A DNA stretch of 12,489 nucleotides, taken from a virus (taxonomy: Duplodnaviria; Heunggongvirae; Uroviricota; Caudoviricetes). Location: the IMG/VR virus record IMGVR_UViG_2636415416_000016. One strand, written 5' to 3'. The notes beneath the pieces are model-generated. The model was not told the origin of the DNA and ran no database searches. It was given only the letters and a program-made list of their open reading frames with translations. This document shows positions 7,160 through 12,489 of this stretch, one piece after another. The first letter of the stretch is position 1; every line of letters starts with the position of its first letter. Made by a program: the position numbers and the translations under genes.

Positions 7160-7350
7160 TTTTCACCCCCAAGAATTACCAGCTCGGCACGGGCATCGTT
7201 AACCAAAGATGAGCACGCTTTAATCGCATCCACGACATCAGTAGCGTCCATTTCTTCAGCCGAAAGACTGACAGCAACCAGGACAGCCGCTGCTTGCTCG
7301 ATTAATTGAAGTGCGGACGTAAGGCGAGGGGTATTAATTGAGTTATTCAT
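7156..7350 (-). CDS. hypothetical small protein, 64 aa
   Basis: ATG at 7348-7350 is preferred over the GTG at 7407 used by the ORF track. ATGAATAA overlap with the upstream stop at 7343-7345; G-rich Shine-Dalgarno-like stretch upstream. Confidence 0.5.
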   Translation of the reverse strand: MNNSINTPRLTSALQLIEQAAAVLVAVSLSAEEMDATDVVDAIKACSSLVNDARAELVILGGEK

Positions 7351-7561
7351 TGGTTGCCCCCGTTTTTCCTGGCATTTCGCCACCTTCCAGCAGGAAATGA
7401 ACGTCACGAACGGCGAGATCCAATATCGCGAGTAACGCCTTCAGTCTTTCGTCTCGTGAGGGAGAGTTGCTCACCAGAATGTCGTTAATCACTTCTGTCA
7501 GTGTGATGATCTGGCTTGTGCGTTCGAGGGGATCCATATGCACATCGTAGGTTTTAATCAT
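7343..7561 (-). CDS. hypothetical small protein, 72 aa ([17 protein letters not shown]...); in frame with, and possibly the C-terminal part of, the long 7343-8410 open frame
   Basis: ATG at 7559-7561 preceded by GGAGGTG at about 5 nt; overlaps the stop of the 7554-7748 gene as ATGATTAA. Coding-like codon usage. Confidence 0.4.
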   Translation of the reverse strand: MIKTYDVHMDPLERTSQIITLTEVINDILVSNSPSRDERLKALLAILDLAVRDVHFLLEGGEMPGKTGATNE

Positions 7562-8410
7562 GTGCCACCTCCATGCGGATACGACCAGCAAAAAAGCAGA
7601 TGTGATCGCGCACCAGAGAACGGCGAGCATCGCGTTCAGACTCGGCAGCAATATGATGAATTTTGGCGGTAATTGTCGGGCAATCGCGGCGAACTGCGGC
7701 GATAATCCAGATAAATTGCGGTTTTTGGGTAGTGGTAGTAGCCAGCATGTGGCAGCCTCCTTGTACTGGGAGTTCTTCCCACCACCGGAGCTGCGAAACT
7801 CGCTGGTGGTGGACTGAACAGAGTTCGCAGTACCGGCGTACAAGGAAACCGGCCAGCCTTTCGGCTGCCCTGTCCAGCCCACCATAATTTTGCAAGCGAC
7901 GCGGATTATAACCGCATCACTGAAAAAAGTGTGAGTCTGGCTAACGGCACAAAAAAAGACGCTCGGCGCGTCATGTGTCGCCTCGTACATTTCCGGGCTG
8001 CGAAACCCGGCACCCGTTTTATGAGGTGCCTTATAACCATAAACCGTGTTGCCGCATAACGGCAAGCTCTTTTTTATGGACTCCGAAAACTCACTATTGG
8101 AAGCACCAGATGCACAATACATCGCGCTCATTTCGTTAACGTCGCGCGTGTGGACGAAGGTTTTTGTGGAGTCACTACGCGAGCAGAGAAAGCCATCTAC
8201 GACCAGAAATTCTCTGGCGCAGCCGCCGACCTTCTCAACGCTAACACCATCGACCGTAATTTCTGACATAGTTAAGGCATTCGCTCCCACCACCAGAAAA
8301 TGATAAACTTTGCTTGTATCTGCTGTATTAATGCCAGACTTTGCTGTCATATTGCTGGATTTTGGCGACATACCAGCCAGTGAAAATATCTTCTTCTGGA
8401 CGGTTAGCAT
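7343..8410 (-). CDS. long open frame (355 codons); only the first 220 or so codons (8410 to about 7750) look coding; possibly Ash-family-like (memory only); no in-frame stop before 7343
   Basis: ATG at 8408-8410 preceded by GGAGGT at 6 nt; overlaps the upstream stop (ATGCTAA). Codon usage is good from 8410 to about 7750, poor from 7748 to 7561 where the 64-aa gene occupies another frame, then good again from 7561. The true 3' end is ambiguous. Confidence 0.45.
7554..7748 (-). CDS. small protein, 64 aa ([43 protein letters not shown]...); resembles, from memory only, Icd-like host cell division inhibitor proteins of P4-like elements
   Basis: ATG at 7746-7748 preceded by AAGGAGG (7756-7762) at 7-nt spacing. 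Codon usage in this frame is strongly E. coli-like (all Arg as CGC/CGT, Leu as CTG), whereas the overlapping long frame uses CTA/TTA/CGA/AGG/ATA here. The TTG start at 7895 used by the ORF track is rejected. Confidence 0.5.
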   Translation of the reverse strand: MLATTTTQKPQFIWIIAAVRRDCPTITAKIHHIAAESERDARRSLVRDHICFFAGRIRMEVAHD

Positions 8411-9424: not shown

Positions 9425-9856
9425 TTAAGCGGCGTTAAACGCGTCCGGGTAGAGTTTCAGAATGTCGGCAATTTCCTGCTGAGAAAGTCCGTTGTGATCA
9501 TTTATGTTCGCAAGATGGTTAATATGAGTGATCACTTTCAGAACATCACCACGGCAGGAGAAACGGTAGCGAAGGTGTGTTCCGATACCATCAGGATTCT
9601 TTTCGTCGATACGCTCCAGAGTGATTCCAAGCTGGCGTTCTAACTCTGTTGCATAGTTACGACCAGAAGACAGACGGCAGTAGCGAAGAATGTCATTTTC
9701 TGTCCATCCCTCTATACCAGTACGCAGCATATAGACTCTGGCACGATGCTTTTTCGGTGTGCGCTTTGGTGCTTGAAGGGATTTTGTAAGGGGCGTAACA
9801 TCAGATACGCGAATATCTGAATTAGCCGCCTGTAATGGGCGGTTTTTCTTATTCAT
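9425..9856 (-). CDS. hypothetical protein, 143 aa, basic N-terminus; possible DNA-binding protein
   Basis: ATG at 9854-9856 overlaps the alpA stop as TAATG. No family recognised by eye. Confidence 0.55.
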   Translation of the reverse strand: MNKKNRPLQAANSDIRVSDVTPLTKSLQAPKRTPKKHRARVYMLRTGIEGWTENDILRYCRLSSGRNYATELERQLGITLERIDEKNPDGIGTHLRYRFSCRGDVLKVITHINHLANINDHNGLSQQEIADILKLYPDAFNAA

Positions 9857-10053
9857 TACGCTACCTCGCCACGCGACTCAGCGATGCGCTGATTAATCCA
9901 TTCTTCAATTTCACTTTCAATAAACGCAATTGATCGGCTTCCAATCTTTACAGATTGAGGGAATCGCTGTTCTTTGATGAGCCGATAAATCCACGCTTTG
10001 CTGTAACCAGTACGGCGTTGAACCTCAGAAAGACGAATAAATGATTGAGACAT
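9856..10053 (-). CDS. alpA: AlpA-family phage transcriptional regulator (Vis/AlpA-like helix-turn-helix), 65 aa
   Basis: MSQSFIRLSEVQRRTGYSKAWIYRLIKEQRFPQSVKIGSRSIAFIESEIEEWINQRI fits the AlpA pattern (RL..V...TG.S...IY.L.....FP...K.G.RS..W...EI.EW). ATG at 10051-10053 preceded by AGGAG at 5 nt. It is the first gene of the long operon. Confidence 0.8.
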   Translation of the reverse strand: MSQSFIRLSEVQRRTGYSKAWIYRLIKEQRFPQSVKIGSRSIAFIESEIEEWINQRIAESRGEVA

Positions 10054-10171
10054 GTTTACTCCTATATTCTGTCATCTTCTTTAATGGACATCAGTAGACA
10101 GAAAGGAGATTAAACAAACCGGTGAATGGGTGATAGCGGATAAAAATAAAATATTTTTTTGAGAAGATTAT

Positions 10172-10206
10172 CCGCTTTGAAATACACAGTAGCGTATTCA
10201 AAGCGG
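10172..10206. repeat. inverted repeat CCGCTTTGAA-N15-TTCAAAGCGG between the acidic cargo gene and alpA; possible terminator or operator
   Basis: 10-bp perfect arms at 10172-10181 and 10197-10206, flanked by A/T runs. On the minus strand no U-tract follows immediately, so it is not a canonical terminator. Confidence 0.4.
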
Positions 10207-10250
10207 AAATCGCGAAATTTACTTAAAACGTTTACGTAGGATTTTGCTTG

Positions 10251-11132
10251 CTATAAATCTCTACTCATTAAATCAGATATTTTTATCAAGCTCATTTCTC
10301 TGTCTTTGTTTACATAAAGCTGAAGCAAGCGGGTGTATCTCTCGCTTATAGATTCAAGTGCAAAAGGCTTTATTGATTCCTTAATAGCCTGCGTATCTTT
10401 CGGATCATCACTAAAAACCAAGGCAGAAATCATCGGATTGCTCACTTCCTTACCTGACTTCTCACCCCAAATCAGCAGATCAACAATAGGTATCACTCTA
10501 TTAGATATCAACTTCTGAAGGGTCTTTAATCCAATCCTTTTCTGAGCGACATGCTCTCTCTCTGGTACTTTTAACTCTTTTCGCCATAGAGGTAGAAGGT
10601 GAGTCAGGCTGGTAATAATTTCGTCATCAGTGGCGTCATCTAAATCTATAGAAACGAGTATGATGTTAGGGGAACAATTACTTAGGTTTCCAGTAACACT
10701 CGCAAGCATAGCGTTTGCCTTGAGGTAGCAATCCTCTTCGTCTCTTTTAAAAAAGCCTTGATCTATCGATGAGAAAGAGTACATGGCCAGCTCTGAAAAT
10801 GTTACTGGACTAACCCCCATAGCTGAAGATAATGAGGGAAGATCATCGTACTCATTTCTTAATGATGGGGCTTCATCATTTACTTTGCGAATAAATTCTT
10901 CGACCTCTTCCTCTTCTTCATTGAGAATGGTTAGGTTAGGATCGCCCGAAAAAATCCTTTCATATTTTATATCGTACTCTTCTTTGAATATAGCAGTGTC
11001 ATCTTTTGCATGACGCAATAAAAAATCGCGCCACTCTAATTCTTGAATCAAGTCCGGCAAGGTTAAATCATTTAAAAATTCATAATTACTAATATCAAAC
11101 CATGCTAAATCTTGTTTTTTGGCTCTCACCAT
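10251..11132 (-). CDS. highly acidic hypothetical protein, 293 aa, encoded by a low-GC gene; cargo between integrase and alpA
   Basis: ATG at 11130-11132, stop TAG at 10251-10253. Sampled stretches are about 37-43 percent G+C against more than 50 percent in neighbouring genes. Asp/Glu greatly outnumber Lys/Arg, with an EEEEEVEE run. No P-loop, nuclease or transmembrane motifs seen by eye. Confidence 0.65.
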   Translation of the reverse strand: MVRAKKQDLAWFDISNYEFLNDLTLPDLIQELEWRDFLLRHAKDDTAIFKEEYDIKYERIFSGDPNLTILNEEEEEVEEFIRKVNDEAPSLRNEYDDLPSLSSAMGVSPVTFSELAMYSFSSIDQGFFKRDEEDCYLKANAMLASVTGNLSNCSPNIILVSIDLDDATDDEIITSLTHLLPLWRKELKVPEREHVAQKRIGLKTLQKLISNRVIPIVDLLIWGEKSGKEVSNPMISALVFSDDPKDTQAIKESIKPFALESISERYTRLLQLYVNKDREMSLIKISDLMSRDL

Positions 11133-11274
11133 ACGCCACCCCGCGCCCCTAATTCTGACGGCTATGCCAGCCCGTAGGGGTGTACGGGTTTTCGGGGATC
11201 AGCCTAGACATAGCCTATTCTTTGTTCGTCTACATAAGTCTACTACCATTGCTTAACACGGTCTATTCATACAG

Positions 11275-12489
11275 TTAAGCTCGTTTCCCAAACGAACCAT
11301 GAACAACGTTCTCCTCCTTCTCCAGCGCATCCATATAGTCGGCATACCATTGAAGCATCTCCCGCCTTCCATCCAGATATTGCGCATGGTTGTATGTGCC
11401 ACGAATTGAGTTCTTATCAACGTGAGCGAGCTGCGTTTCTATCCACGCGGTGTTATAGCCCTGCTCATGCAAAATCGTGCTCATAGTGTGCCGGAACCCA
11501 TGACCAGTTACACGTCCAGCGTAGCCAATGCGCTTAAACACTTGGTTTATGCTGGCCTCACTCATTGTTTTCCTTGGATCATTGCGCCCGGGAAACATAA
11601 GAGGGTAATTGCCTGTTATTTCTCTAATCTTCCCAATAAGCGAAAGAGCCTGATCAGACAATGGCACAATATGAGGCCGCCGCATTTTCATACGTGAAGC
11701 GGGTATCTCCCAGATAGCCTTGTTGAAATCAATTTCATCCCATAATGCGCCACGTAGTTCGCCAGTCCGCAAGCCGGTGATAATCAGTAGACGAGCCGCC
11801 ATAACAACCAATGCGCTTCTTGAGTAACTGGACAATGCCTTGAAAAAATCAGGTAATTCTTTAGCTGTAAGGAAAGGGTAATGATTAGATTCATGGCCTT
11901 GCATCGCGCTAGTAAGGTCTGGTGCAGGGTTATACTCTGCGCGACCAGTGACTATTGCATAGCGGAAAACTTCCCCGCACCGCTGCCTCACTTTTTTGGC
12001 TTTTTCTGTAGCACCGCGCCCCTCGATGCGCCGCAGCACATTCAGAAGTTCAAGTGGTTTGATTTCGGCGATTGGTTTTTTGCCAATGTAAGGGAACACA
12101 TCTTTGTTGAAGGCTTCGAGGATGTCTGAAGCATAACCAGCAGACCATTTTTTTAATTTGCTGCTGTGCCACTCAAGGGCAATATCTTTGAAGGTGTTGT
12201 TTAACTGCGTTTCCCGGGCAATCTTTTCCTCTCGTTTCGCTTCCATCGGATCGATACCACCAGCGATACCTCTTTTCGCATCTTCACGTTTTGCCCGAGC
12301 ATCGGCTAGAGTAACCTCAGGATACACACCTAGTGCCAATAGCTTCTCTTTACCAGCTACACGATATTTAAGTCGCCAGTATTTACCTCCATTAGGTTTT
12401 ACCAAGAGATACAAACCGCCACCATCGGCCAGCTTGTAAGCCTTCTCTTTTGGCTTGGCTGTGTCTATTTGACGGGCATTGAGTTTCAC
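11275..12489 (-). CDS. int: P4-type tyrosine integrase (site-specific recombinase)
   Basis: N-terminus KLNARQIDTAKPKEKAYKLADGGGLYLLVKPNGGKYWRLKYR is the classic P4-integrase arm-binding signature. C-terminal catalytic region has HGFRH and the RGTYNHAQY tyrosine motif. Stop TAA at 11275-11277. The frame starts at the window edge (GTG 12487-12489), so the true start may lie just beyond the window. Confidence 0.9.
   Translation of the reverse strand: MKLNARQIDTAKPKEKAYKLADGGGLYLLVKPNGGKYWRLKYRVAGKEKLLALGVYPEVTLADARAKREDAKRGIAGGIDPMEAKREEKIARETQLNNTFKDIALEWHSSKLKKWSAGYASDILEAFNKDVFPYIGKKPIAEIKPLELLNVLRRIEGRGATEKAKKVRQRCGEVFRYAIVTGRAEYNPAPDLTSAMQGHESNHYPFLTAKELPDFFKALSSYSRSALVVMAARLLIITGLRTGELRGALWDEIDFNKAIWEIPASRMKMRRPHIVPLSDQALSLIGKIREITGNYPLMFPGRNDPRKTMSEASINQVFKRIGYAGRVTGHGFRHTMSTILHEQGYNTAWIETQLAHVDKNSIRGTYNHAQYLDGRREMLQWYADYMDALEKEENVVHGSFGKRA

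Follow-up and report, generated by a model that had tools for sequence, protein, structure and literature searches.

A DUF6387 gene occupies an exchangeable slot between int and alpA, behind the int-alpA RNA motif, in an EcCIMP1-like island of Escherichia coli

Introduction

What is encoded between the integrase gene and the alpA gene of a satellite island, and on whose behalf would such a gene act? The question is raised by a 12,489-nucleotide stretch of DNA (IMG/VR virus record IMGVR_UViG_2636415416_000016, Caudoviricetes; "the window" hereafter denotes this whole stretch), in which an open reading frame (ORF) of 293 codons separates a P4-type integrase gene (int) from alpA. An earlier interpretation made from the nucleotide letters alone (the sequence-only reading) had proposed that this ORF is a separately acquired cargo gene in a P4-like satellite hotspot, encoding either a highly acidic DNA mimic comparable to Ocr and ArdA or an unrecognised defence protein. 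The gene is assigned here to DUF6387, a family that is catalogued but has not been characterised, and its position is of a type already known to hold accessory genes in satellites; what is new is the strict linkage of this family to alpA, the exchange of the int-alpA slot in sister islands, and the tie between the RNA motif RF02996 and the ORFs in the slot.

The closest experimental system is EcCIMP1, the phage-inducible chromosomal island (PICI) of E. coli MP1, for which induction and transduction by the P22-like phage Kapi1 have been shown (PMC11773190). The role of AlpA in EcCIMP1 and in EcCICFT073 has been described (PMC11773190, PMC6092414), and how helpers switch on Gram-negative PICIs, and whether a repressor or sensor exists in them, has yet to be settled (PMC6092414).

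Results

The ORF between int and alpA encodes a DUF6387 protein

The ORF runs from ATG to stop at 10251..11132 on the minus strand, and both the coordinates and the neighbours given in the sequence-only reading were correct. The deduced protein matched the Pfam family DUF6387 (PF19924) at E=3.7e-38 (132 bits vs a gathering threshold of 28.9), with residues 5-269 aligned to model positions 6-256 of 258, and was identical to RefSeq WP_000251023.1 ('DUF6387 family protein'), which is present in many E. coli genomes. A family can thus be assigned where the sequence-only reading had recognised none, and the name was already in use in RefSeq. The sole match in PHROGs was phrog_23422 (function not known), and NCBIfam gave no match for the window protein. 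By a profile search of 1.84 billion cluster representatives, homologues were found in 498 clusters (50% identity) at E<=1e-3; almost all of them were 250-330 aa long, none of the clusters showed a fused extra domain, and DUF6387 was the only Pfam match in 99/99 diverse family members. Pfam searches of the window protein and 99 members detected no signal peptide, no regulator or toxin domain and no helix-turn-helix (HTH) domain, and no enzymatic or membrane features were recognised in the protein. The lack of enzymatic motifs noted in the sequence-only reading was borne out, neither an enzymatic Pfam domain nor a catalytic motif being recognised. In the literature, DUF6387 was found in two gene tables only, no publication testing a function was found, and PF19924 and WP_000251023 gave no matches.

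Comparison of DUF6387 alleles gave a nonsynonymous divergence (dN) of 0.22-0.29 with saturated synonymous divergence (dS), hence dN/dS was not computable. Because dN stays within this range while dS is saturated, the protein is, as judged from these substitutions, under purifying selection. It might be supposed that the ORF is a chance or decaying frame and that the conserved RNA described below is the sole functional element of the slot, and the far better conservation of this leader than of the ORF would agree with that; such a frame would scarcely keep its length at 250-330 aa or yield a confident AlphaFold2 (AF2) model from the family alignment, and in view also of the full-length Pfam match, the 498 clusters and the dN far below saturated dS, the explanation was given next to no probability and the ORF is regarded as a real gene.

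The gene is found just upstream of alpA across lineages

Genomic context was collected for 27 DUF6387 loci from genome, metagenome, plasmid and 'phage' collections, 24 of which had enough downstream DNA (the other three end within ~170 bp of the stop codon); scanning genomes with close homologues yielded only 5 loci, so the context sample is small. An AlpA gene was present on the same strand, 52-212 bp downstream of DUF6387, in 24/24 informative loci, and these loci represent 16 lineages (<90% identity) reaching ~27% identity to the window protein and belonging to several element types. Directly upstream of DUF6387 there was usually a P4-type integrase gene. In three distant lineages (L021, L024 and L029), which have no RNA leader, the stop codon of int overlaps the start codon of DUF6387 by 4 bp, and this overlap implies, from gene layout, that translation of the two genes is coupled. 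The EARL/ROD21-type islands (ICEKp258.2; L023 and L025) have no adjacent integrase gene on the same strand, an integrase gene lying directly upstream on the opposite strand in L025, and keep the DUF6387-alpA pair at the island end. The order of DUF6387 followed by alpA was the same as in the window in ICEKp258.2 (gene 28) and in a Serratia island, and from its position SEN1999 of ROD21 is probably a further DUF6387 member; no functional discussion of SEN1999 was found in the literature.

The divergence of DUF6387 followed that of Int (Mantel r = 0.58) and of AlpA (r = 0.64; p about 0.004 for both), with DUF6387 diverging faster than AlpA (e.g. 34% vs 74% identity). In a phage collection DUF6387 was found in 1/50,697 records, that record being a bacterial contig, and it was not found in plasmid leading regions. 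Because the gene was seen solely just upstream of alpA (24/24) and its divergence tracks Int and AlpA, DUF6387 is not free-moving cargo.

As the sequence-only reading had observed, AT content is higher in the gene than around it (GC 0.380 and GC3 0.361, vs GC 0.475 for int and 0.480 for the window). The separate acquisition that was deduced from this composition did not hold up, for DUF6387 lies ~0.11 below the adjacent int in GC in all 12 PICI-type lineages measured, including 0.495 vs 0.588 in a host of ~59% GC. Since the gap to int recurs in every PICI-type lineage measured, the family as such is lastingly AT-rich, and the low GC of the gene is no sign of separate or recent acquisition.

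One locus of the sample, L024, is deposited as a 17-kb K. pneumoniae 'plasmid' (CP018459.1); besides int, DUF6387 and an alpA-like gene, this circular record has genes for terminase, capsid and tape-measure proteins, and it looks like an excised capsid-forming PICI (cf-PICI) or a phage-like element rather than a plasmid.

A conserved RNA leader precedes the start codon

The spacer between int and DUF6387 (142 nt) is conserved far better than the flanking genes: E. coli, Shimwellia, Klebsiella aerogenes, Yersinia and Providencia have nearly the same sequence, and two of its helices contain compensatory changes. It contains, at 11147..11214 (-), the int-alpA RNA motif (Rfam RF02996) described by Weinberg et al. 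2017 (PMC5737381), a three-way junction directly before the gene that the sequence-only reading had missed. The motif was detected by cmscan at 46.7 bits vs a gathering threshold of 35.8 (E=4.4e-8) and ends 14 nt before the DUF6387 ATG; with its score and its covariation, the window copy is a bona fide member of the family. An alignment (A3) extended the conserved leader to 11127..11245 (-), comprising a GTAGAC-N6-GTAGAC repeat, the RNA motif, the GAGGGCGCGAGGTGG Shine-Dalgarno region and the ATG. Among nine related sequences 99.3% of cells were paired, vs 29-50% with slid partners, which gives moderate support to the structure; 4-5 compensatory pairs were counted in helices P1/P3, four pairs changed on both sides, and RNAalifold independently recovered P1 and P3.

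Across loci, a distance of 13-21 nt separates the end of the motif from the start codon, and a conserved GAGGTGG Shine-Dalgarno region follows the motif. This position holds for DUF6387 in eight lineages, and also for two other ORF families found in the same slot (described below), namely a 265-aa ORF (RF02996 detected with the Rfam model in L031 and L032) and a 239-aa ORF, the latter detected with our own covariance model R1, which scored 104 bits in the window and 91-97 bits upstream of the 239-aa and 265-aa ORFs (91 bits for the 239-aa ORF). In all, the RNA was found before the slot ORF in the window and in L004, L005, L006, L008, L011, L015, L020, L030, L031, L032 and L033, and it was found neither in slots without a co-directional ORF (L016 and L017) nor in the lineages in which DUF6387 overlaps int. 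Although Rfam lists RF02996 as a small RNA, the fixed spacing of 13-21 nt before three unrelated ORF families and the absence from ORF-less slots suggest that it may act in cis as a 5' leader. The int-alpA slot thus looks like an expression platform, in which a conserved structured leader would be followed by an exchangeable ORF. No earlier description of RF02996 placed before the start codons of exchangeable ORFs was found, and the placement is newly noted here; no function for RF02996 is given in the Rfam description or the literature searched.

Sequestration of the Shine-Dalgarno region by the leader was considered and rejected, as no consistent pairing or covariation was seen by eye and RNAalifold leaves the region unpaired. 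A promoter scan found no sigma-70-like promoter for the DUF6387 gene. The GTAGAC-N6-GTAGAC direct repeat, at about 11222-11245 (-) just upstream of the RNA motif, is conserved across genera and may serve as a binding site, either of the arm type or for a regulator, or belong to an unusual promoter.

On the other side of the gene, an inverted repeat of 37 nt with perfect 11-nt arms and a stem extending to ~20 bp lies at 10171..10207 (-), 44 nt past the DUF6387 stop codon. A hairpin occupies the equivalent position in most lineages, followed in L007 and L008 by a T-run as in an intrinsic terminator; the window hairpin has no adjacent T-run and was not called by a simple terminator scan. We infer from this arrangement that the hairpin, in the manner of a terminator, may keep transcription of the slot gene from running into alpA. 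The spacer between DUF6387 and alpA (10054..10250 (-), 197 bp, GC 0.34) presumably holds the alpA promoter.

The slot is exchanged in sister islands

When the window was compared by blastn with the sister islands L016 and L017, homology stopped at 10044 and resumed at 11299 (L016) or 11320 (L017). A variable segment is thereby delimited at 10045..11298 (no strand assigned), which includes the DUF6387-alpA spacer and is swapped in the sister islands for 466 bp of unrelated DNA without an ORF. In the comparison with the sister island of strain MB165, identity was ~93% up to 10044 and 98.5% from 11299, and 1254 bp of the window corresponded to the 466 bp. The sister islands share the attachment (att) site (tRNA-Thr), and their int is 98.5% identical. 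In other E. coli islands at the same site, the slot holds a small opposite-strand ORF (as in EcCIMP1), a 239-aa ORF, a 265-aa ORF or a second DUF6387 allele, so that at least five slot states occur at one att site; among complete E. coli genomes the full segment was present in 84/726 genomes matching any part of the int-alpA region. These cassette boundaries are reliable for the window vs L016/L017 only, the non-coding DNA of divergent lineages being unalignable by blastn.

The alternative occupants are a 239-aa protein of pI 5.2 (L030:3784-4503 (-)) and a 265-aa protein of pI 4.7 with a coiled-coil region (L031:3674-4471 (-), L034:4001-4792). Neither family had a Pfam match above threshold or a PADLOC match, and no profile similarity to DUF6387 was seen for either in comparisons of a single sequence with a profile, a test that very remote kinship could escape. 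The 265-aa family is kept in the order int-X-alpA at 38% identity, in Salmonella, and because this alternative also keeps the slot, the slot-dedicated families appear to form a class. YfjH of CP4-57, which lies between intA and alpA in K-12, was considered as a relative and rejected, being unrelated (hhalign probability 0.4%) and encoded on the opposite strand. In the ORF-less int-alpA spacers (L016:9261-9687 and L017:9261-9911), three to six direct copies of a ~25-nt motif (…GCGCAATTGYTCTTTAA…) were observed, each after a GC-rich hairpin; these arrays could be protein-binding sites or repetitive extragenic palindromic (REP)-like repeats, and no such array was seen by eye in the window slot.

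EcCIMP1 has no DUF6387 gene, yet its excision, its transduction and the switching on of its alpA when the helper is induced are documented (PMC11773190). Because EcCIMP1 and the close sister islands lack the gene and EcCIMP1 completes these steps, DUF6387 is optional for the satellite cycle. The sequence-only reading had proposed cargo rather than backbone, and in this respect it stands, the same gene not being found in every related island.

A role within the island's own switch has to be weighed against these results. DUF6387 would in this case be a non-essential stabiliser, anti-activator or sensor that tunes excision or induction through Int and AlpA; its acidic part could bind the basic AlpA, a protein of the recombination directionality factor (RDF) family, or Int, or the alpA promoter region could be the target of its C-terminal part. 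Such a role would account better than a part in conflicts with phages or other elements, the reading favoured in the Discussion, for the occurrence beside alpA only, even in reportedly conjugative islands, and for the co-divergence with Int and AlpA. The co-directional adjacency to alpA (24/24 loci, 16 lineages) spans PICIs, a cf-PICI-like element, EARL/ROD21 and ICEKp258.2 islands and an island with an AAA_25 replicon, which share little beyond Int and AlpA, and the translational coupling to int in three lineages, the location of the alpA upstream region within the swapped segment, the open question of a repressor or sensor in Gram-negative PICIs (PMC6092414) and the slight effects on excision of the ROD21 AlpA-like RDF acting alone (PMC8844411) point the same way. 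Against this, EcCIMP1 and many sister islands do without the gene and alpA there is off until a helper phage induces it, and unrelated ORFs can fill the same slot. A switch modulator, the strongest rival to the favoured reading, was on balance considered possible, if somewhat unlikely.

Charge distribution and predicted fold

The protein has a pI of 4.62 and 55 D+E vs 35 K+R, giving a net charge of -20, or -0.068 per residue, and the charge is unevenly distributed: residues 1-180 are acidic (net -24), and the more conserved residues 181-293 are slightly basic (net +4). For Ocr (T7 gp0.3) the net charge is ~-0.24 per residue. The description 'highly acidic' in the sequence-only reading is therefore overstated, the charge density being about a quarter of that of Ocr. 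In the family, 94% of members have a net negative N-terminal part (median -10) and 73% have a net positive C-terminal part, with a median whole-protein pI of 5.46 and 18% of members basic. The best-conserved residues are aromatic or hydrophobic ones together with R35, D169, R184, K207 and D218, mostly in the C-terminal part, and no catalytic motif was recognised among them.

Structure prediction by AF2 with 22 close homologues gave a poor model (predicted local distance difference test (pLDDT) score, 67), and with 99 diverse members a model (md7134be4b4fc) of pLDDT 93.1 and predicted template modelling score (pTM) 0.87, mostly helical with a few short strands. A Foldseek search of this model against viral models gave no match below E=0.46, and profile searches of PDB sequences gave one match at E=0.41 (alignment A1) and none at E<=10 (A2). 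Among the listed structural matches, none was described as Ocr or ArdA. The predicted DUF6387 fold is thus one without a solved relative detectable by these searches.

An acidic DNA mimic or other anti-restriction protein, which would be made with Int on host entry and would protect the incoming DNA, had been proposed in the sequence-only reading. DUF6387 resembles Ocr and ArdA in its net-acidic N-terminal part (net -24 over 180 residues in the window protein) and in being apparently non-enzymatic; co-expression with int would suit an establishment function, and the gene is optional, variable and fast-evolving. It differs from them in a charge density about four times lower, in the absence of sequence or fold similarity, in its genomic niche and in an acidity that is not family-wide. 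A DNA mimic was taken to have a pI of about 4 or below and a net charge of about -0.15 to -0.25 per residue, and DUF6387 falls outside both ranges. Moreover, the most conserved part is the non-acidic C-terminus, the searches convincingly matched neither Ocr or ArdA nor any structure of the PDB or of viruses, and the gene was not found in phage early regions or in the leading regions of plasmids. With these results the proposal was judged very unlikely. The other suggestion, a defence protein, found no match to any known defence system: in PADLOC-DB v2 the window protein had no match at E<=0.1, and 99 relatives had only scattered single weak matches, with no model recurring consistently.

The host island is EcCIMP1-like

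The window matches E. coli chromosomes at tRNA-Thr/proA. The integrase gene (11275..12489 (-), the ORF reaching the window edge) encodes 404 aa of a P4-family tyrosine integrase (RefSeq WP_000772642.1) with the Pfam domains Arm-DNA-bind_3, Phage_int_M and Phage_integrase, and alpA (9856..10053 (-)) encodes 65 aa of a master activator and RDF-family regulator (Phage_AlpA PF05930, E=8.9e-20). The gene order of the island is int, DUF6387, alpA, a 143-aa ORF, AntA, DUF4222, an Ash-family ORF and several small ORFs, followed by a TOPRIM/DUF927 primase gene and then by DUF2824 and P22-type ejection-protein genes. P4-like traits are present (the Ash-family ORF, C4 and isrK RNAs and an alpha-like primase), but neither the window nor the complete island of strain 6409 was found to contain a psu/delta/sid operon. 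Because this operon is lacking, the element is strictly not a P4-like satellite; by the order of int, alpA and a TOPRIM+DUF927 primase gene, without a phage structural or lysis module, and by its specific att site it shows the features of Gram-negative PICIs, and it is assigned as an EcCIMP1-like PICI at the tRNA-Thr site by proA. The P4-like hotspot of the sequence-only reading therefore survives in its variable integrase-proximal occupancy and not in its element type, the flanks being int and alpA.

The window island shares with EcCIMP1 the att site (tRNA-Thr between proA and yagU) and the genes for int, alpA, AntA, primase, DUF2824 and ejection-protein-like products, and differs from it between int and alpA, where EcCIMP1 has only a small ORF (EcCIMP1_002) and the window has the RNA leader and DUF6387. 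It is common in O111 Shiga toxin-producing E. coli (STEC), and a homologue is common in Salmonella. This distribution, and the fact that PICIs carry genes directed at the host (PMC6092414, PMC11773190), would agree with a host-directed accessory role in physiology or virulence, like that of the PerC-like gene of EcCIMP1; the family occurs, however, in many genera and habitats, always beside alpA, and has no signal peptide, regulator or toxin domain, and such a role was regarded as quite unlikely.

Several further features of the island were recorded. P22-type virion homologues (DUF2824, phrog_651, head morphogenesis; a DNA ejection protein; an injection protein) are encoded at 748-1838 of the window and in L002:2721-7088, and fit a helper of the P22 type, for example Kapi1; the same has been noted for EcCIMP1. 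At 1-750 of the window, a fragment of an IS5-family transposase gene (ORF 1-516, NF033580, 176 bits) replaces the sequence of the strain 6409 island, which is otherwise 99.8% identical; homology to that island begins at 751, within an ORF at 748-1383 (phrog_598, 'DNA ejection'). IS1203 cuts this same island short in strain E2855, just past antA. A C4 antisense RNA (81 bits, 7802-7889 (-)) and an isrK RNA (69 bits, 7952-8029 (-)) both lie within the ORF of a 355-aa 'ash family protein' (7343-8410) and overlap the stretch matching Pfam Phage_ASH, a layout that resembles the P4-type immunity region; either the ash ORF is over-called at its 5' end or the protein and RNA annotations overlap there.

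Discussion

In integrative elements under AlpA control, the interval between int and alpA appears to be a dedicated expression slot, and DUF6387 is its commonest occupant. In this slot, a structured leader with a Shine-Dalgarno region would precede an exchangeable ORF, which a hairpin would set apart from alpA. The 4-bp overlap with int in three lineages and the hairpin insulation before alpA support expression on the integrase side of the switch, and DUF6387 would accordingly be made in a resident or newly arrived island, outside the AlpA-induced programme. We infer that the protein works by binding a partner protein and serves interference, immunity or exclusion against phages or rival elements. 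Our tentative preference is thus for an accessory protein that acts by binding and not as an enzyme, is produced together with Int and is engaged in conflicts between island and phage or between elements; it is favoured because the gene is optional, exchangeable and fast-evolving and because Staphylococcus aureus pathogenicity islands (SaPIs) offer a precedent. Fast evolution (34% identity where AlpA has 74%), the RNA leader shared with the unrelated slot ORFs, the retention of the 265-aa alternative in its int-X-alpA position, the conserved charge split and the lack of an enzymatic domain lend it support.

Several points weigh against this preference. Neither DUF6387 nor the alternative slot ORFs had a match in PADLOC. 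The context of DUF6387 is alpA only (24/24), including EARL/ROD21-type islands reported to be conjugative, which points to a function tied to Int and AlpA, as does the co-divergence with both (Mantel r = 0.58 and 0.64). The lineages compared for context number 16, out of ~500 clusters, and the proposed timing of expression is deduced from gene layout, no sigma-70-like promoter having been found.

The comparison with known systems is instructive in both directions. In the P4/P2 defence hotspots (Rousset et al. 2022), integrase-proximal satellite loci reportedly hold alternative, unrelated cargo between conserved flanks. The slot described here is likewise integrase-proximal, with variable occupants between conserved flanks in close relatives. 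It differs from the P4 hotspot in that the island has no psu, delta or sid and the slot is flanked by int and alpA, not by int and psu, and from the P4/P2 hotspots in general in that none of the three slot occupants matches a known defence model and the occupants appear to be dedicated to the slot, not shared with other defence islands. In SaPIs, the interval between int and the master regulator gene stl is a recognised position for accessory genes (PMC6092414). DUF6387 resembles these genes in lying between int and a master regulator gene and in being variable and satellite-specific, whereas it is co-directional and the SaPI arrangement is divergent. Unlike a repressor of the Stl/Rpr kind, it has no HTH domain and is not needed for the silence of alpA in EcCIMP1-type islands, and AlpA is itself an activator, not the target of a repressor of the Stl kind.

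A broader view, speculative and unlikely in our estimation, is that the RNA leader and the ORF that follows it, be it DUF6387 or one of its non-homologous alternatives, form an unrecognised module of islands under AlpA control. The RNA would then be a sensor or regulator in cis, and the slot protein would be the missing specificity factor that couples or uncouples AlpA/Int to or from particular helper phages or hosts, or else a non-enzymatic immunity protein of a new fold.

DUF6387 would be an ordinary finding if it proved to be a dispensable passenger without phenotype. As a family of ~500 clusters, with a confidently predicted fold that matches nothing solved and with an alpA-only context in our sample, it is among the few genes positioned to bear on the PICI switch; alternatively, it would, if the immunity interpretation is true, be a new kind of satellite-borne immunity protein. 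The orphan int-alpA motif of Rfam also gains a concrete context, apparently as a 5' leader at a fixed distance before an exchangeable ORF. O111 STEC, Salmonella and Klebsiella commonly carry islands of this kind, among them the ICEKp258.2 and ROD21 families, and the control of their stability is epidemiologically relevant. The strict linkage to alpA, the orphan fold and the link to an RNA leader make DUF6387 a worthwhile experimental target.

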